Source of the DNA: Escherichia phage vB_EcoM-pEB20
Sequence record: OP114733
DNA: 64,000 nt
Strand: one strand, 5' to 3'
Made by a program: the position numbers and the translations under genes. Below are positions 9,814-17,708 of this stretch, one piece after another (position 1 is the first letter of the stretch; each line of letters opens with the position of its first letter). The notes under the pieces were generated by a model. The model made no database searches. It had not been told where the DNA came from and was given only the letters and a program-made list of their open reading frames with translations.

Positions 9814-10107
9814 GTTTTAGGTGATTCGCTACCTTAGTGCGGCTAGAAAATCGAGGAGCCGTCGAACTGTCTGATTAATGATTTGCGAATCATTATAGTT
9901 TTAAGACCCCGACAGTTTTACGGTGTACCTCTTGAATGTATTTTATACTATCACGCGTCAGAAAAAGGTTATCTGTCTAAGTCGTGGTTGGTATGATGAC
10001 GGGTTTATGGTTATCCTGTCGTTAAATATCCAAAACCTATGTTCCCCTTGAGGGCTTGCGCAGGCAATGTCAATAAGTCCTGCATTTTCATTTAAAGAGA
10101 ATTTATA

Positions 10108-10287
10108 ATGGCAAAACAAGCTAAAGCAAAGAAAGCAGTTGAAAAGAAAGTTGATGGTACCTCTAAACGCGCTGGATACAAGCGTGGGTCGAACTCTCGT
10201 ATTAATCAAACAGTTGAGAAGATCATGCGCAGAGCACGTGCAGTTCTTCGAGATGATGCTTCTCGTTTTGGAAAGGTTGTTGCATAA
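10108..10287 (+). CDS. Small basic hypothetical protein (59 aa; not in supplied ORF track)
   Basis: ATG at 10108 to TAA at 10285-10287, translating MAKQAKAKKAVEKKVDG...; followed by terminator hairpin. Confidence 0.5.
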   Translation: MAKQAKAKKAVEKKVDGTSKRAGYKRGSNSRINQTVEKIMRRARAVLRDDASRFGKVVA

Positions 10288-10292
10288 TTTTA

Positions 10293-10316
10293 GGGAGACT
10301 TCGGTCTCCCTTTTGT
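10293..10316 (+). terminator. Intrinsic terminator GGGAGAC-UUCG-GUCUCCC + UUUU
   Basis: Perfect 7-bp stem, UUCG loop, T-run. Confidence 0.7.
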
Positions 10317-10346
10317 GCGTTTAGGGCAGAAAAAGTTTAAAAAGAT

Positions 10347-10375
10347 GTTTACTCTCCTGTAGGATGTGTTACTAT
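10347..10375 (+). promoter_or_regulatory. T4-type early promoter (GTTTACT-N16-TACTAT)
   Basis: Read directly. Confidence 0.55.
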
Positions 10376-10417
10376 AGACTTGTACCACCTAATCAATAAA
10401 ACAACCTGGAGAACAAA

Positions 10418-10786
10418 ATGAAAATCAATCTGAACTCATACATCAAATGTAAAGACCACGATGGTTATAAAGCTATCGAAATTAAAGAATTCCAGTGGAT
10501 GTTATACAAAGAGCAATTTGAGTTCGTAGGTTGTATGACCCCTGAAGGTCCTTCTGATGATTTCTCTTGGAAAATTGTGTTAGCAAACTTTTTCACAGGT
10601 GACACATACGAATTAAAAACTATTATTACCGGTAAAATTCGTTCAGAAACATATGTTGACGAAGAAACTGGTTACTCTGAAGATGTTACATGGTATCAAA
10701 ATGGGCGCATTACAGCAGATAACCTGATCGAAAAAATGAAAGCCAAAGGTGTTTTAAATTTAGACAATTGGATTAAAGTTGCATAA
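10418..10786 (+). CDS. Hypothetical early protein (122 aa), paralog family member
   Basis: ORF with GGAGAA RBS; shares a CMTP-containing motif with the next ORF. Confidence 0.55.
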   Translation: MKINLNSYIKCKDHDGYKAIEIKEFQWMLYKEQFEFVGCMTPEGPSDDFSWKIVLANFFTGDTYELKTIITGKIRSETYVDEETGYSEDVTWYQNGRITADNLIEKMKAKGVLNLDNWIKVA

Positions 10787-10790
10787 AACA

Positions 10791-10819
10791 GTTTACTTTG
10801 GTACAGGTTATGTTATTAT
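10791..10819 (+). promoter_or_regulatory. T4-type early promoter (GTTTACT-N16-TATTAT) framed by a 10-bp inverted repeat
   Basis: Read directly; TGGTACAGGT and ACCTGTACCA flank the -10. Confidence 0.55.
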
Positions 10820-10860
10820 AGACCTGTACCAACAAACAACTTAAACATCTGGAGAATAAA

Positions 10861-11226
10861 ATGAACTACACCAACTTCGAACGTAAATATGTTTCTAACG
10901 GTATTGCTGGTTCTTCTGAAGTTATTTGCTTATGGAAACACGAAAACGGTACAGTTTGTGAAATCGAACAGTGCATGACTCCTAATTACGTTTATATGCG
11001 ATTTGAAAATGGTATCACGGTTTCAATCACGATGGAAGGTTCAAATTTTAAAATTGCATTAGATGATGATTTCCGTCAGCGTGATTTAGGTACTCATCCT
11101 TGCTGGAATGGTGTTAATCGTAAACTTCTGGTTAAAACTTGGATTCGTCATATCCTGAGTAACCGAGCTAAACCTGAACATCTCGAAGCAATCTTTGATG
11201 TAGTTCTTAACGAATTTGATATCTAA
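10861..11226 (+). CDS. Hypothetical early protein (121 aa), paralog family member
   Basis: ORF with GGAGAA RBS. Confidence 0.55.
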   Translation: MNYTNFERKYVSNGIAGSSEVICLWKHENGTVCEIEQCMTPNYVYMRFENGITVSITMEGSNFKIALDDDFRQRDLGTHPCWNGVNRKLLVKTWIRHILSNRAKPEHLEAIFDVVLNEFDI

Positions 11227-11233
11227 ATTAATT

Positions 11234-11249
11234 GGGAGCTTCGGCTCCC
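11234..11249 (+). terminator. Stem-loop GGGAGC-UUCG-GCUCCC without U-tract (RNA-stability or attenuator-like)
   Basis: Perfect hairpin read directly; no downstream T-run. Confidence 0.4.
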
Positions 11250-11261
11250 ACTGAGGAAATT

Positions 11262-11876
11262 ATGTTTAAAGTTAATACTTTTTATAAAATGAATTTTAAA
11301 AATGGGGATATTACTCCACGCCTTAAAAACATGTTCTCATATGACCTTATTGAGCCTTTTGAAGTTTTAGAAGTTACTGATGCCGGCTCAGTTTGTGAAA
11401 TTAGAACTTCTGAAGGTAAAATTTATCAGGCCGGTGTTGGTAAATTCAGTAATTGTTTTACTTTAATATTCTCGACCGATTTAGATGAGCATTTTATTGA
11501 ATGTCCTAACCCTAAGGTCTATGAAGTTCCACATCAAGAAACTAAGAAAAATGGACCGCACGAATATACGAAGGTTGAAACTCCTCACGGCGTGATGTGG
11601 CGACATAACTCTCCTTTTGGAAGTAAAGGAACATTTGCTCAACTGGCTAAGCCCTACGACGATGAAAAATATGTAGTAGTCCTTTTATCTGAACAGGGTA
11701 CTCAAGACCGTGGATGCCAGCGTTCCGGTTTATTGAGTGAACTCGAAGCTCATAACCTAGCACGTGAATTCGTTGAGAAAAATCCTGGTTCTGAAGCTCT
11801 AGTCATGAAAGCAATTACTCAATATATCACTGCTCAACCTGTTGTTCATCCGGTAGAAATTAATTTCATTAAGTAG
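11262..11876 (+). CDS. Hypothetical protein (204 aa from ATG at 11262)
   Basis: The tracked ORF begins at a TTG inside the hairpin; ATG at 11262 has a GAGGAAA RBS. Confidence 0.55.
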   Translation: MFKVNTFYKMNFKNGDITPRLKNMFSYDLIEPFEVLEVTDAGSVCEIRTSEGKIYQAGVGKFSNCFTLIFSTDLDEHFIECPNPKVYEVPHQETKKNGPHEYTKVETPHGVMWRHNSPFGSKGTFAQLAKPYDDEKYVVVLLSEQGTQDRGCQRSGLLSELEAHNLAREFVEKNPGSEALVMKAITQYITAQPVVHPVEINFIK

Positions 11877-11906
11877 TGTACATCCAAGGACGGATTAGAG
11901 TATAAT
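11876..11906 (+). promoter_or_regulatory. Possible early promoter variant (GTGTACA-N18-TATAAT)
   Basis: Read directly; upstream of ORF at 11931. Confidence 0.35.
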
Positions 11907-11930
11907 GATTTCTTTAGTAAGTGGAAAAAT

Positions 11931-12128
11931 ATGAAATTTTTAATAGCACAAACAGTCCAATTAAAAGGTGTTGGAATCCCTGGGATGATTTTTAAAGTTC
12001 TCAACGAATTTAAAACTGCCGCTGGAATTATCAATGAAGCGTATGCTGTTCAATGGGTTGATGGGACTTCTGACATACGTATGGGTAAAGAGTTATCTCC
12101 TATTAAAGGGTTGAAACATGTTGAATAA
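11931..12128 (+). CDS. Hypothetical protein (65 aa)
   Basis: ORF. Confidence 0.45.
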   Translation: MKFLIAQTVQLKGVGIPGMIFKVLNEFKTAAGIINEAYAVQWVDGTSDIRMGKELSPIKGLKHVE

Positions 12129-12336
12129 ATTAATCCAGAAATTGTTTGGTACGGAAATGATTGAAGTTACTTATCGTGTAACCGACGTTTTTCCATATTA
12201 CGCGGAAAACCGTTTAGAACCATACGTTACGTCAATTAAAATGCCTAAAAATGACAGAAATTTATCTATCGAAGACCGTATACCTGGATACGGACATTGG
12301 GCTGATGTTGAAATTATAAGTGTTAAAGATGTCTGA
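12118..12336 (+). CDS. Hypothetical protein (72 aa)
   Basis: ORF. Confidence 0.45.
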   Translation: MLNKLIQKLFGTEMIEVTYRVTDVFPYYAENRLEPYVTSIKMPKNDRNLSIEDRIPGYGHWADVEIISVKDV

Positions 12337-12787
12337 ATTAGAAATAAGAAGTAATTTCAAATGGCCGTCATGTGCATTAAGTAACTTTGCTCAATGGCCT
12401 TTTGTTATGGATGGTATTCAATTCGGAGGTCTTGAAGGATTTCTCCAAGGATGTAAGGTGAAAAATGTTGAACAACAAAGACGTATATTTGGGTTGTCTG
12501 GATTGGCTGCACAGCAAGCTGGAAGGTCTTACGCAAGAGCTCAGGACCGTGGGACTCTCTTCTGGTTAGGAGTTCCATTTTCAAGATACTCTGAAGCGTG
12601 GAAAGAATTATACACAAATGCATATTTTGAAGCCGCGATCCAAAACAAGGGGTTTCGTGATGCCTTACAAGCCTCTAAAGGAAAAATTTTGAAGCACAGC
12701 ATGGCCAGCCACCTAACAAAAGATGATACAATACTAACTGAAGCTGAATTTATTGATGTGTTAAACCTATTAAGAGACTCTTTATGA
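12320..12787 (+). CDS. NADAR / YbiA-like (DUF1768) domain protein
   Basis: 155 aa; motif SNFAQWPF..DGIQFGGLEGFLQGCKV parallels recalled E. coli YbiA FSNFAAWPIKVDGKTWPTSEHYFQAQKF. Confidence 0.55.
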   Translation: MLKMSELEIRSNFKWPSCALSNFAQWPFVMDGIQFGGLEGFLQGCKVKNVEQQRRIFGLSGLAAQQAGRSYARAQDRGTLFWLGVPFSRYSEAWKELYTNAYFEAAIQNKGFRDALQASKGKILKHSMASHLTKDDTILTEAEFIDVLNLLRDSL

Positions 12788-13608
12788 AGCCTACTATTTT
12801 GACTGATATTGATGGTGTATGTTTAAGCTGGCAATCTGGACTTCCTTATTTTGCCCAAAAATATAATCTTCCATTAGAACATATTTTAAAAATGATTCAG
12901 GACGAAAAATTTATTTCTCCTGGTAAACTATTCAATACCGACGATAACCTCGGTAAACAATTAATAGAAAAATATAATCGCTCTGATTTTATTCGTTACT
13001 TAGCGCCTTATTCGGATGCTCTTCGAGTTATCAATAAACTAAAAGAAGACTATAATTTTGTAGCCGTGACGGCGCTAGGTGATTCAATTGATGCTCGATT
13101 GAATAGACAATTTAATTTGAATGCTTTGTTCCCAGGCGCTTTCTCTGAAGTAATGATGTGTGGTCATGATTCTTCAAAGGAACAATTATTTGAACTAGCT
13201 AAAACAAAATATAACGTGATTTGTTACGTTGACGATTTAGCTCATCACTGTGACCATGCGGCAGAAATTCTTAATGTACCGATTTATTGGTTGGCTCGTG
13301 GTGAGCGTGATGCCATTCCTCGTACTGCACAACGTGTACACACGTGGGATGATATTGAATCTCGTTTGGTTCTGCCTAAGAATAATTCAGATTCAGATCG
13401 TGAAGACCTTTTAAAACGATTGGCGGATTTGCTTAAAGAATCTGGTGCAACAAGTCCAGGTGCATGGCCTAATCAAATTGGTGGCCCCTCGACAACACGT
13501 ACTCCATATACCTGGCGAACCCCAGGACCAACTGATATGCAGCCGTGGTGGACGATTCAAAACTTTCCTTTAGATTCGTCTAAATGGACTTGGTCTATAA
13601 ATTGTTAA
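12784..13608 (+). CDS. HAD-superfamily hydrolase-like protein (nucleotidase-like) with Trp/Pro/Thr-rich C-terminal tail
   Basis: 274 aa; HAD motif I LTDIDGV at N-terminus and DD motif (YVDDLAHH); C-terminal ~50 aa of low complexity. Confidence 0.5.
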   Translation: MKPTILTDIDGVCLSWQSGLPYFAQKYNLPLEHILKMIQDEKFISPGKLFNTDDNLGKQLIEKYNRSDFIRYLAPYSDALRVINKLKEDYNFVAVTALGDSIDARLNRQFNLNALFPGAFSEVMMCGHDSSKEQLFELAKTKYNVICYVDDLAHHCDHAAEILNVPIYWLARGERDAIPRTAQRVHTWDDIESRLVLPKNNSDSDREDLLKRLADLLKESGATSPGAWPNQIGGPSTTRTPYTWRTPGPTDMQPWWTIQNFPLDSSKWTWSINC

Positions 13609-13617
13609 GGGATAATT

Positions 13618-13887
13618 ATGTTTGTAGTTCATGATATTACAGATGGCAAAAACACAACGCGTGACTACGGTCACGTTAACATGTTCTTTCGAGACTGGCC
13701 ATTGTTTCGTTCAGTAAAAGACGCAGAAATATTTAAAGAGTGTGTTGAACAAGGGTTCATCTACATTTCAGAATATTATGTTGAAGGACTCGGTAAATGG
13801 ATTACCACTTATCAGAAAACGCTGAAATCGCTTCTAGATGAAGTGGCTTATAATAGAACCGTAACCAAAATTGAGGACATCAAATGA
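13618..13887 (+). CDS. Hypothetical protein (89 aa)
   Basis: ORF immediately upstream of ligase. Confidence 0.5.
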   Translation: MFVVHDITDGKNTTRDYGHVNMFFRDWPLFRSVKDAEIFKECVEQGFIYISEYYVEGLGKWITTYQKTLKSLLDEVAYNRTVTKIEDIK

Positions 13888-15377
13888 TTTTAGATATTTT
13901 AAACCAAATAGCTGCGATCGGTTCTACTAAAACAAAACAAGAAATCCTTAAGAAAAATAAGGACAACAAATTACTTGAACGTGTGTATCGTTTAACATAT
14001 GCACGTGGTATCCAGTATTATATTAAGAAATGGCCAGGACCAGGTGAAAGGTCCCAAGCATATGGTCTTCTTGAATTAGATGACATGTTGGATTTTATTG
14101 AGTTCACATTAGCCACTCGTAAACTCACTGGTAATGCTGCAATTAAAGAGCTCATGGGTTATATCGCTGACGGTAAACCTGATGATGTAGAAGTCCTTCG
14201 TCGTGTAATGATGCGCGACCTTGAAGTAGGTGCTTCAGTGTCTATCGCGAATAAGGTGTGGCCTGGACTTATTCAATTGCAACCACAGATGTTAGCATCT
14301 GCATATGACGAGAAATTGATTACTAAAAATATTAAATGGCCTGCATTTGCTCAATTAAAAGCCGATGGTGCTCGTTGTTTCGCTGAAGTTCGCGATGATG
14401 GTGTTCAATTCTTTTCTCGTGCCGGTAATGAATACCATGGTCTTACTCTATTAGCGGATGAACTAATGGAAATGACTAAAGAAGCTCGTGAAAGACACCC
14501 TAATGGGGTTTTAATCGACGGTGAATTAGTTTATCATTCATTCGATATTAAAAAGGCTGTGAGCTCAGGAAATGACCTGTCGTTCTTATTTGGTGATAAT
14601 GAAGAATCCGAAGAAGTACAGGTTGCAGACCGTAGCACTTCAAATGGTTTAGCAAATAAATCTCTTCAAGGGACTATTTCTCCTAAAGAAGCGGAAGGTA
14701 TGGTTCTTCAAGCCTGGGACTATGTTCCTTTAGATGAAGTCTATTCTGACGGCAAAATTAAAGGTCAGAAATACGATGTTCGTTTTGCTGCTCTTGAAAA
14801 TATGGCTGAAGGCTTTAAACGAATTGAGCCAATTGAAAATCAGTTAGTTCGTAATCTTGACGAAGCTAAAGTGGTTTATAAAAAATATGTTGACCAAGGT
14901 CTTGAAGGTATTATCCTTAAAAACCGTGATTCATATTGGGAAAACAAACGTTCTAAGAACCTAATTAAATTTAAAGAAGTTATTGATATCGCTTTAGAAG
15001 TTGTAGGATACTATGAACACTCTAAAGACCCTAACAAATTAGGTGGTGTCGAACTCGTATCACGTTGTCGTCGTATTACAACCGACTGTGGTTCAGGGTT
15101 TAAAGATACAACTCATAAAACAGTTGACGGTGTAAAGGTTCTTATTCCTTTAGACGAGCGTCATGATTTAGACCGTGAACGATTAATGACCGAAGCTCGT
15201 GAAGGTAAATTAATTGGACGTATCGCTGATTGTGAATGTAATGGTTGGGTTCATTCTAAAGGCCGTGAAGGTACTGTAGGTATTTTCCTTCCAATTATTA
15301 AAGGGTTCCGTTTTGATAAAACAGAAGCGGATTCATTTGAAGACGTATTTGGACCGTGGTCCCAGACAGGTTTATAA
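13884..15377 (+). CDS. 30: ATP-dependent DNA ligase
   Basis: 497 aa; matches recalled T4 DNA ligase along its length (MIL.ILN.IA.IGSTK.KQ.IL.KNKDN.LL.RVYRLTY.RG.QYYIKKWP...). Confidence 0.92.
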   Translation: MILDILNQIAAIGSTKTKQEILKKNKDNKLLERVYRLTYARGIQYYIKKWPGPGERSQAYGLLELDDMLDFIEFTLATRKLTGNAAIKELMGYIADGKPDDVEVLRRVMMRDLEVGASVSIANKVWPGLIQLQPQMLASAYDEKLITKNIKWPAFAQLKADGARCFAEVRDDGVQFFSRAGNEYHGLTLLADELMEMTKEARERHPNGVLIDGELVYHSFDIKKAVSSGNDLSFLFGDNEESEEVQVADRSTSNGLANKSLQGTISPKEAEGMVLQAWDYVPLDEVYSDGKIKGQKYDVRFAALENMAEGFKRIEPIENQLVRNLDEAKVVYKKYVDQGLEGIILKNRDSYWENKRSKNLIKFKEVIDIALEVVGYYEHSKDPNKLGGVELVSRCRRITTDCGSGFKDTTHKTVDGVKVLIPLDERHDLDRERLMTEAREGKLIGRIADCECNGWVHSKGREGTVGIFLPIIKGFRFDKTEADSFEDVFGPWSQTGL

Positions 15378-15565
15378 TGAAAGCTTATTTAGAAACAGTA
15401 ATTGTCGCTAATAAAGATGGTGGCGATGTTTCCACCTCTTGTTCCCAAATTGTATTAGATTTTCCTAATAACGATTCCTATCATATTTTTATGGACAATT
15501 TTGATAAGTACGAAAAAGGCCCTAATTTTGAAGTTTATCGTACTTTGCTCCCGATTGTGGATTAA
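15377..15565 (+). CDS. Hypothetical protein (62 aa)
   Basis: ATG overlapping ligase stop (TAATG). Confidence 0.45.
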   Translation: MKAYLETVIVANKDGGDVSTSCSQIVLDFPNNDSYHIFMDNFDKYEKGPNFEVYRTLLPIVD

Positions 15566-15586
15566 GAGCCTTCGGGCTCTTTTTGG
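15566..15586 (+). terminator. Intrinsic terminator GAGCC-UUCG-GGCUC + UUUUU
   Basis: Hairpin plus T-run read directly. Confidence 0.7.
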
Positions 15587-15620
15587 CATAAATATAAATT
15601 ATTACTAAAAGGAAAACACT

Positions 15621-17708
15621 ATGTCTGAACAATTAAATGAAGTGTTTGAATCTGAAGGCAGTCTTCCTGTCGTCAATTTGAACCCTAAAGCTAAAGTTCC
15701 ACAAGTCTGGAAAATTGGTGATATCGATACAAATATTGTAGTTCGTTTATTCTCTTACCTTTCCGAAGGCGATGCTGTAAAACAAGTTAAACTCGGCGAC
15801 AAATACGCTCATGTTGTTATTATGAGTCTGTCTGAAAAGGGTAATCTCGCTGAATTGAAAAATGGCCTTGGTCCTGCTCCTATTGATGCAATCAACACCA
15901 TTTTCAATACAGTATATGAACAAGTTAAAGCTCTTCGTATGGATGCAGTTCTGTTCCGATTCCCTACCAAGAAATTGAAAGGACGTGGACAACAGCTTCA
16001 AACTCTTCTTGCTCGTTTAGTTTCTACTAAAACTGGTGGTCGTTTTAAAGTATTGTCGGCAATGTATCAATTCACAGGTAAACACACCTATGTGATGATG
16101 GTTCGTAAAAATGCCAACATTGAAGATATTAAAGGCATCCCTAACATTAACACAGAGTTGTACACGAAAGTAGATTCTGATGTTGGCGAAGTTTATGTGA
16201 GTAAAAAGACCGGCGAAACGGTCACCAAAGAAACGGCTATCGCTGGTTCTATTGCTGCTGTAGAAGAAAAACGTAAAGATAAGCCTGTTATTGCTCGTAC
16301 TAAAATTTCTCGTCGTGCTATTGCAGCAAGTCAATCTTTAGAAGCTGACCGACAAGAAGGTGAGTTATTCCAGAAATACGAAAATTCTGCTAAAGAAGTT
16401 AGTGGCCCAGCTACAGCCGAATTACTTCCTGAAGCATATGAAATCGTACTAGCCCAAGCATCATCCACAGCAAAAGGCACTTTAGTTGCTGATATCGAAA
16501 ATAAGATTTATAATCGTATTGATGAATCCTTTAGATTTGCTGATGAAGTTTCTTATGGTAGTGTTATTAAACCAACTTTAGAAAAGTTTGCTAAGAAAAT
16601 TAAAACTGAAAAAACAACATCTGTTAAAGCATTAGCTGCTTTTGTTGAAGCTGCAAATGAAATTGCAGACTCTATTAAAGACGAATGGTTTGAAGATTTT
16701 AGACGTGATAATTTCCAACTGGCCGACGATGTTTTAGCTGAAGTATCTGAAAAAACTTGGAAACAACGTAAATCAGCGTTCTTGTCTAATGTGATGTATA
16801 CTTATGCACGAGAATCGGCTAGAGGCACCTTTAATATAACAATGAATCGGGTCCCTCAACAATACTCTGTTGCTGAAAAACGAGCTATTCGTGAATATGC
16901 CTCTTCTGCGTATACCGATATCAATAATATGTTGTTAGGTCGTTATAAACCAGATTTTTACGATGTTGCAGATGAAGATGAAGTTAAACGCGCTATCGAT
17001 GGTCTTGATTCGGCGTTTTTAAATGGAGACCGTTTACCTGAAGGACTAACGTTATATAGAGCTCAGTCTATCAGAATGCCTATTTACGAAGCAATGGTTA
17101 AAAATAAGGTATTCTACTTCAGAAACTATGTTTCCACTTCACTAGCTCCTATTATTTTCGGTGGGTTTAAAGAGAACGTTGCCCTTGGACTTGCTCCTGA
17201 AGAAGTTCGCAAAGAGCTTAACATTGACAATAATGATGAAGGTGTTACTATTTCTCCTAGCCTGGTGCGTACCGCTATGCATGCGCCAGAACAAATTCGT
17301 GTTAATGTTGGATGGGCTATTGATGGCGCCCATAAAGTTAACGTGATTTATCCGGGACAGTTGAGTAATCACCCTAATGAGCAAGAAATTATTTTGCCTA
17401 GAGGCATTCTCTTGCAGATAAATAAAATTACAGATGCGTCATCTGACACTGGTGCAGGTTTAGAATCCAACCTTAAATTTATTCAAGCTGAAGTCATGTC
17501 CTCGGACCAGTTGGATGAAGCCGTCATTTACGATGGTGATGTTCTCATGGAAACAGGCGAGGTGGTTGCTATGACGGGTGAAATCGAATCAGATGAGCCG
17601 GTATCTTTTGCCTCATTTGTAGAAAAAACTAGTGCACCTAAAGGTTTGAAATTGTTAGCATCTTTAATGGATTTAGAATCAGTTCCGTTTAAATTTGTCC
17701 AAGGATAG
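15621..17708 (+). CDS. alt: ADP-ribosyltransferase Alt (packaged, modifies host RNA polymerase)
   Basis: 695 aa; similar to recalled T4 Alt; expected position between gene 30 and gene 54. Confidence 0.85.
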   Translation: MSEQLNEVFESEGSLPVVNLNPKAKVPQVWKIGDIDTNIVVRLFSYLSEGDAVKQVKLGDKYAHVVIMSLSEKGNLAELKNGLGPAPIDAINTIFNTVYEQVKALRMDAVLFRFPTKKLKGRGQQLQTLLARLVSTKTGGRFKVLSAMYQFTGKHTYVMMVRKNANIEDIKGIPNINTELYTKVDSDVGEVYVSKKTGETVTKETAIAGSIAAVEEKRKDKPVIARTKISRRAIAASQSLEADRQEGELFQKYENSAKEVSGPATAELLPEAYEIVLAQASSTAKGTLVADIENKIYNRIDESFRFADEVSYGSVIKPTLEKFAKKIKTEKTTSVKALAAFVEAANEIADSIKDEWFEDFRRDNFQLADDVLAEVSEKTWKQRKSAFLSNVMYTYARESARGTFNITMNRVPQQYSVAEKRAIREYASSAYTDINNMLLGRYKPDFYDVADEDEVKRAIDGLDSAFLNGDRLPEGLTLYRAQSIRMPIYEAMVKNKVFYFRNYVSTSLAPIIFGGFKENVALGLAPEEVRKELNIDNNDEGVTISPSLVRTAMHAPEQIRVNVGWAIDGAHKVNVIYPGQLSNHPNEQEIILPRGILLQINKITDASSDTGAGLESNLKFIQAEVMSSDQLDEAVIYDGDVLMETGEVVAMTGEIESDEPVSFASFVEKTSAPKGLKLLASLMDLESVPFKFVQG

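Follow-up and report, generated by a model that had tools for sequence, protein, structure and literature searches.

We analysed a 64,000-nucleotide stretch of DNA from Escherichia phage vB_EcoM-pEB20 (OP114733; hereafter the window), which belongs to a T4-like Mosigvirus, and concentrated on two neighbouring genes on its plus strand. Gene 30.3 (adfN, 12329–12787) encodes an intact, full-length NADAR protein of 152 amino acids. Gene 30.2 (12784–13608) encodes a protein of 274 amino acids that consists of a putative HAD phosphatase core with a C1 cap (residues 1–199, 12784–13380), as assigned by its match to phrog_420, its motifs and its fold, and of a linker helix followed by a Trp/Pro/Thr-rich tail (residues 200–274 and stop codon, 13381–13608), as delimited by structural model and composition. 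The closest relatives retrieved for comparison were members of Mosigvirus, the RB69 genus, and between 11.9 and 17.7 kb the genes follow the T4-type order 30.5-30.4-30.3-30.2-30.1-30 (ligase)-alt.1-alt, all on the plus strand. The gene features of this region are not a chance pattern: it shares 99% identity with Escherichia phage APCEc01, and 691 phage records match it. A sequence-only reading of the window had described a NADAR signature, HAD motifs, the unusual tail and the downstream ligase and Alt genes, all of which lie where it had placed them, and had treated the first two genes as a pair. Our analysis indicates that, in all likelihood, the phage carries an intact AdfN next to an independent HAD phosphatase and that the two are not a functional pair.

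Profile match, fold and catalytic residues all bear out the assignment of the first protein to the NADAR family made in the sequence-only reading. The longest open reading frame (ORF) available to this gene has 155 codons and runs from a GTG at 12320 to 12787, and the start that is conserved among gp30.3 proteins is the ATG at 12329. In T4, gp30.3 likewise begins at this Met, and a stop codon three codons before it leaves no room for an earlier start; judged by this conservation, the ATG at 12329 is the true start of 30.3. Residues 18–43 of the resulting protein (LSNFAQWPFVMDGIQFGGLEGFLQGCK) match the signature SNFA.WPF..DG..F...E.F.Q..K exactly. The protein scored 232 bits against Pfam PF08010 (Phage_30_3; cutoff 36, E = 1.9e-69), covering profile positions 1–138 of 138, and is identical to T4 gp30.3, which is AdfN, at 147 of 152 positions (97%). 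A profile built from 78 gp30.3 homologs aligned to E. coli YbiA over precisely the signature stretch (E = 0.007). Glu36, Lys43 and His123 are invariant across these 78 homologs, the first two at the catalytic positions of T4 AdfN.

The AlphaFold2 model of gp30.3 had a predicted local distance difference test score (pLDDT) of 93.4 and a predicted template modelling score of 0.89. Searched against the PDB with Foldseek, it retrieved YbiA (2b3w), Phytophthora PnNADAR (8bau) and a Geobacter NADAR (8bat) as the top three matches (probability 0.95–1.00), and all remaining matches had probabilities of at most 0.06. The match to 2b3w (E = 1.7e-4, template modelling score 0.68) was the only one at E ≤ 1e-3. 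In the model, His123 sits where the last strand (residues 120–122) ends, and the C-terminal helix (residues 138–151), on which full AdfN activity depends, is intact. The phage NADAR subfamily is distinguished by a catalytic His in the last strand, where the YbiA family has Glu and the DarT1-linked family Asp (PMC11125620), and the alignment suggests that His123 is equivalent to this subfamily-defining residue. Neither gp30.3 nor gp30.2, searched as a single sequence against PDB, NCBIfam and PADLOC, gave anything useful. As a side observation, the phrog_652 profile has 296 positions, of which the gp30.3 match spans only 126–272, and the Methods of the Toxins 2024 study (PMC11125620) give residues 1–208 for the T4 NADAR construct, yet T4 gp30.3 has 152 amino acids; longer, N-terminally extended relatives of gp30.3, or another construct, may exist.

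The function of the T4 ortholog has been established in published work. The DarTG1 resistance of T2 and T4 was mapped to gene 30.3, which was renamed adfN for anti-DarT factor NADAR; T4 becomes sensitive to DarTG1 upon deletion of adfN, the AdfN mutants E36A and K43A give partial rescue only, and purified AdfN strips ADP-ribose off DarT1-modified DNA (Johannesman et al., Nat Commun 2025, PMC11825919). In vitro, gp30.3 acts on guanine-ADP-ribose and not on thymine-ADP-ribose (Toxins 2024, PMC11125620). We also used the supplement of the HIDEN-SEQ preprint, a genome-wide transposon screen from 2025 (Extended Data Table 6, sheet S6; T4 on DarTG1), in which insertions in T4 30.3 were lost on DarTG1 with a log2 fold change (log2FC) of −7.25. 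The proposal in the sequence-only reading that these genes might counter DNA ADP-ribosylating toxins is therefore correct for the NADAR protein, the T4 ortholog having been shown to do so both genetically and in vitro (PMC11825919, PMC11125620); since this role was published in 2024–2025, it is not new.

The T4 and vB_EcoM-pEB20 proteins share length, start, the E36/K43 pair, His123, the C-terminal helix and the flanking genes 30.4 and 30.2, and differ by five substitutions (vB_EcoM-pEB20 to T4: K11R, E89P, I120V, M125I and H128G). T4 is a Tequatrovirus, whereas vB_EcoM-pEB20 is a Mosigvirus, for whose protein the activity is predicted. RB69 belongs to the same genus as vB_EcoM-pEB20 and is nearly identical in DNA sequence, with 41 mismatches over the approximately 1.3 kb stretch of 30.3 and 30.2. 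Unlike vB_EcoM-pEB20, it carries a natural loss-of-function allele of 30.3: an extra T at nucleotide 411 cuts the last helix of its AdfN short and thereby makes RB69 sensitive to DarTG1 (PMC11825919). Our alignment placed this 1-nucleotide insertion near position 12738 of the window, where it is absent from vB_EcoM-pEB20 adfN, so that this Mosigvirus has a functional-looking AdfN. On grounds of identity and mechanism, vB_EcoM-pEB20 30.3 is very probably an intact AdfN ortholog and DNA guanine-ADP-ribose glycohydrolase, and by analogy with T4 the same activity on DNA would be expected here. The host toxin DarT1 would ADP-ribosylate guanines in single-stranded phage DNA and thereby stall replication; AdfN would then cleave the N-glycosidic guanine-ADP-ribose bond by means of the Glu36/Lys43 pair and the subfamily-specific His123, releasing ADP-ribose and restoring replicable DNA. 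By the same analogy, vB_EcoM-pEB20 is predicted to plate on DarTG1 hosts, unlike RB69.

DarG1, YbiA and T4 gp30.3 are all established guanine-ADP-ribose hydrolases, and gp30.3 shares with Geobacter lovleyi DarG1 (8bat) and with YbiA (2b3w) the Glu/Lys catalytic pair and the NADAR/YbiA fold, in which small beta-sheets flank the core helices. The last-strand residue is His in gp30.3, Asp in DarG1 and Glu in YbiA. In contrast to DarG1, gp30.3 lacks an N-terminal extension and its gene has gp30.4 and gp30.2 as neighbours. We found neither an adjacent DarT1 toxin gene nor PADLOC matches that would place adfN in a DarTG1 system; the gene is antitoxin-like but an orphan, in line with published descriptions of AdfN.

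The second protein, gp30.2, falls into phrog_420 (E = 5e-78), a family of unknown function, and carries LTDIDGV (D8, D10) and YVDD (D150, D151). All four HAD motifs are present (I, DxD; II, T96; III, K132; IV, D150-D151). Across 82 homologs there is no variation at D8, D10 or K132, and conservation reaches at least 90% at T96, D150 and D151; K132 and D151 stay invariant in a wider homolog set. An Asp at position +2 of motif I is a mark of phosphotransferases rather than dehalogenases. The AlphaFold2 model has a pLDDT above 93 across residues 1–190 and shows a Rossmannoid core into which a C1-type helical cap is inserted immediately behind motif I. Foldseek returned 108 PDB matches at E ≤ 1e-3; each of the 50 listed was either a HAD-superfamily enzyme or a HAD-derived design. 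With fold and all four motifs in agreement, the earlier HAD assignment holds, and gp30.2 is most likely an active HAD phosphatase, which would be Mg-dependent and use Asp8 as nucleophile and Asp10 as general acid/base.

Relatives of gp30.2 point in the direction of nucleotidases. An exhaustive profile search for the family recovered approximately 1,030 cluster representatives, mostly tailless proteins of approximately 200 amino acids, and 19 of 58 distant family members matched Pfam NT5C (PF06941; best E = 1.5e-9). A broad family profile that took in these distant members matched the putative 5'(3')-deoxyribonucleotidase 3bwv of S. epidermidis over its full length (E = 8e-7), followed in rank by yeast SSM1, a xanthosine monophosphate phosphatase, mdN and cdN. 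To judge by these profile matches, the wider gp30.2 family grades into NT5C-type 5'(3')-deoxyribonucleotidases. With the NT5C enzymes cdN and mdN and with 3bwv, gp30.2 shares the HAD core with C1 cap, the DxDGV motif and, beyond it, an aromatic residue at +8 and the S-G motif; the invariant W16-Q-S-G of gp30.2 aligns to F-E-S-G of cdN. Set against these enzymes, it has an identity of approximately 15–18%, additionally carries the linker helix and the disordered Trp/Pro/Thr tail, and lies below the Pfam NT5C threshold; vB_EcoM-pEB20 gp30.2 itself had no PF06941 match and aligned weakly to cdN (2jao, E = 0.4–0.5). A literature search on gp30.2 found nothing, including no biochemical data for any homolog. 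Because the nearest characterised relatives are of the NT5C type, dephosphorylation of a nucleoside monophosphate or a similar small phosphoester would be the likeliest reaction, and a nucleotide monophosphate is a tentative suggestion for the substrate.

The C-terminal tail of gp30.2 (residues 221–274) contains 9 Thr, 8 Pro and 6 Trp among its 54 residues. In the AlphaFold2 model the block-mean pLDDT is 73–91 for the helix at approximately 203–220; from residue 221 onwards the block means fall to 42–55, and the tail is predicted to be disordered. We compared tails across 99 sequences, comprising 98 homologs and the vB_EcoM-pEB20 protein. Thirty-six were essentially tailless and 53 had tails of at least 45 amino acids. 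The tails are highly variable in sequence and share a compositional bias, with Trp and Pro enriched 2.6-fold and Thr 2.1-fold.

An odd composition, predicted disorder, absence from 36 of the 99 sequences and, in phage AV114, a distal tail in another frame are what a sequencing or frameshift artefact, or untranslated read-through, would also produce, and the sequence-only reading had asked whether the tail is translated at all. The pattern of substitutions argues for translation. In Mosigvirus comparisons, changes in the tail fall mostly on third codon positions, with synonymous to non-synonymous counts of 8:3, 10:3 and 4:0, and the single indel in these comparisons is 9 nucleotides long and in frame, so that the tail appears translated and constrained. 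The tail allele occurs in 149 phage records at 88–100% DNA identity, RB69 included, and the same frame is open in the 142 phage records that cover at least 80% of the tail DNA. The motif TWRTPG is common to this tail and the otherwise different tail of T4, and the representative of the 99%-identical cluster, P0001, stands for 238 member sequences. An artefact is hence extremely doubtful; we rejected it on the synonymous and non-synonymous counts, by which the gp30.2 tail is translated and under selection.

The tails nonetheless appear to turn over quickly, through indels and frame changes. The distal tail of AV114 has been replaced via a frameshift: relative to positions 13545–13608 of the window, the AV114 locus (L083, approximately 1655–1740) has a 1-nucleotide deletion and a 15-nucleotide insertion and encodes a different C-terminus (…PHWRYTNVGEHPVPPYWAVPQGYGTTKG). 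A further motif, GIEY(L)…(Q/R)PT, is found in T4 and in 14 of the 53 long tails and is absent from the vB_EcoM-pEB20 tail. For the role of the tail we infer a disordered, fast-evolving and optional appendage, perhaps a docking peptide.

Whether the NADAR and HAD proteins work together was central to the sequence-only reading. The 30.2 start codon lies on the gp30.3 stop codon (ATGA, 4-nucleotide overlap), from which gp30.2 is probably translationally coupled to adfN, and such co-translation would suit a two-enzyme module in which gp30.2 is the T-even factor that AdfN-T4 is stated in the literature to need, or processes the released ADP-ribose or a breakdown product (ribose-5-phosphate or adenosine monophosphate). 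The coupling of ADP-ribose-removing enzymes to phosphatases, including HAD 5'-nucleotidases, has precedent (PMC9503650), and no gene separates 30.3 from 30.2 in Tequatrovirus, Mosigvirus and some further genera. Each is found in approximately 1,450–1,500 phage records, with an identical host spectrum and in nearly the same genomes, and by this measure the two are quasi-core genes of T4-like phages. On DarTG1, however, insertions in T4 30.2 (71 sites) were unaffected (log2FC −0.12, p = 0.61) while those in 30.3 were lost, and only 30.3 and 30.4 were significant; we therefore rejected gp30.2 as the missing cofactor of AdfN. T4 30.2 is non-essential, with insertions at 72 of 72 sites.

Gene order also speaks against a module. 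A NADAR gene was found within 3 kb of gp30.2 in 37 of 78 viral loci and a gp30.2 homolog within 4 kb of a NADAR gene in 20 of 80 NADAR loci, and in several complete T4-like genomes the two lie approximately 60 kb apart, e.g., on contig 2974718797 (loci L021 and L134). These numbers led us to reject the idea that NADAR-HAD synteny is conserved and marks a module, and the presence of a tail is uncorrelated with an adjacent NADAR. The adjacency of adfN and 30.2 is lineage-specific and reflects inherited T4 gene order, a neighbourhood and not a two-enzyme system; the pairing put forward in the sequence-only reading did not hold up as a functional unit. For DarTG1 a two-enzyme module is largely refuted, and we consider it improbable overall.

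Several observations weigh against the preferred reading of an intact AdfN beside an independent HAD phosphatase. Two papers, PMC11125620 among them, found no neutralisation of DarT1 by T4 AdfN when cells were uninfected, and one of them proposes that AdfN requires a T-even factor. T4 AdfN also rescues non-T-even phages only weakly; its mechanism is incomplete and a further phage factor is involved. The activity in vB_EcoM-pEB20 is extrapolated from an ortholog of 97% identity. For gp30.2, every Pfam and NCBIfam score is below the gathering score (HAD_2, 15.5 vs. 23.8 bits; TIGR01428, 12.7 vs. 125.4 bits), and with curated sequence models below cutoff its HAD membership derives from fold and motifs. 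Structural searches rank dehalogenases, beta-phosphoglucomutase-like enzymes and nucleotidases about equally, and 30.2 showed no phenotype in any condition checked, which leaves the substrate assignment weak. Finally, dispensability of 30.2 in one laboratory screen is compatible with a redundant or condition-specific contribution.

As to the further factor, gene 30.4, immediately upstream of adfN, is a candidate. Exactly two T4 genes were significant on DarTG1 in HIDEN-SEQ, 30.3 and 30.4, the latter with a log2FC of −1.79 (adjusted p = 0.014), a result that is absent from the main text of the preprint. Homologs of T4 gp30.4 have 68–72 amino acids, and one is encoded directly upstream of T4-type AdfN in 34 of the 36 loci that have one. 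In vB_EcoM-pEB20 the end of 30.4 overlaps the start of adfN by 8 nucleotides, which suggests translational coupling and makes polarity possible, and the screen result for 30.4 may be a polar effect on adfN. Insertions in 30.5 likewise trended down (log2FC −3.0, not significant), and those in 30.6 and 30.7 did not. Contrary to simple polarity, insertions in 30.1 and 30.2 were tolerated although the essential ligase gene follows with a similar overlap. Outside the T4/RB69 group, the ORFs upstream of NADAR genes are unrelated to gp30.4, and we rejected a conserved small upstream ORF as a wider feature of NADAR genes. That a T-even-specific factor for full AdfN activity is encoded in the same small operon, by 30.4 and not by the HAD gene, seems to us unlikely.

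The nearby alt gene had also been linked to the NADAR gene in the sequence-only reading, and the link was not sustained. It lies 2.8 kb downstream of adfN on the same strand, and T4-like NADARs are expressed early alongside ADP-ribosyltransferases (Iyer et al.), as would be expected if the NADAR protein served the ADP-ribosyltransferases of the phage itself (Alt, ModA/ModB) by reversing or editing marks made by Alt on host proteins or RNA. Tested NADARs, however, cleave guanine-ADP-ribose N-glycosidic bonds. The usual targets of Alt are arginine side chains. In addition, the T4 adfN phenotype is specific to DarTG1 and neutral without it, T4 alt insertions were themselves neutral on DarTG1 (log2FC −0.01), and the NADAR gene is distant from alt in other T4-like genomes. 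We regard this explanation as very improbable; the proximity of alt is plain T4 gene order, and Alt is unrelated to the finding.

Even less probable is a riboflavin-type pair, in which a YbiA-like N-glycosidase acts on riboflavin intermediates and a YigB-like HAD phosphatase on flavin mononucleotide or ARPP. E. coli YbiA is the closest solved fold to gp30.3, the YbiA family has been tied to riboflavin metabolism in the literature, and one gp30.2 homolog was automatically named 'FMN phosphatase YigB' by JGI. Yet the gp30.3 proteins form a NADAR subfamily of their own with His replacing the Glu of the YbiA family, the sequence neighbours of gp30.2 are nucleotidases and not YigB, and DNA de-ADP-ribosylation is directly evidenced. 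Insertions in 30.2 and 30.3 were moreover neutral in minimal versus rich medium (30.2 log2FC −0.10 in M9 vs. LB).

With an intact AdfN and a separate phosphatase as the preferred reading, the finding is ordinary and already explained: gp30.2 is a widespread phage phosphatase that, in the T4 data, is dispensable for the anti-DarTG1 task. It matters little beyond annotation, where almost all of the approximately 1,500 phage records label gp30.3 as hypothetical and annotation as AdfN is due. A working anti-DarTG1 gene is predicted here, unlike in the genus type RB69, which bears on host-range prediction and on the choice of therapeutic phages. In some Mosigvirus records the intact gene goes unannotated or is given too late a start. 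In Shigella phage SHSML-52-1 (L084, 457–903) adfN is intact yet unannotated, and in phage p000y (L082, 448–906) it is annotated from a late start (126 amino acids) despite an open frame of 152 amino acids. The protein database also contained many clusters of truncated gp30.3 (89–126 amino acids; P0102–P0105, P0111 and P0112), e.g., from phages SV76 and UGJNEcP4, which suggests that the gene is repeatedly lost, either in reality or through annotation, as has happened in RB69. The internal out-of-frame ORF 30.3' of T4 (75 amino acids) has its equivalent at approximately 12425–12530 (frame +3), where it stops after approximately 34 codons. Frame translations showed this stop codon in vB_EcoM-pEB20, RB69, AlbertHofmann, p000y and AV114; given this interruption, 30.3' lacks conservation and is probably a spurious ORF.

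The remaining genes of the block are encoded on the plus strand on either side of adfN and 30.2. Upstream lie the 30.5 homolog (11931–12128, 65 amino acids; ORF list and T4 gene order) and the 30.4 homolog (12118–12336, 72 amino acids; phrog_2042, E = 2e-35), which overlap by 11 nucleotides. Downstream, after a 9-nucleotide gap, gene 30.1 encodes a DUF3045 protein (13618–13887; Pfam PF11243, E = 1.4e-26) and overlaps by 4 nucleotides with gene 30, the ATP-dependent DNA ligase (13884–15377; Pfam PF01068, E = 1.9e-26, and T4 synteny). A small ORF at the alt.1 position, in the interval between ligase and alt (15356–15565), matches Pfam PF24647 ('Phage blade protein', E = 7e-30), and alt itself encodes an Alt-like ADP-ribosyltransferase (15621–17708; Pfam PF03496, E = 2e-28). 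A scan of positions 10000–15700 for promoters and terminators gave counts that were not above chance (22 vs. 17 ± 4.6 and 6 vs. 3.9 ± 1.8). A promoter-like hexamer pair is located at 11877–11906.

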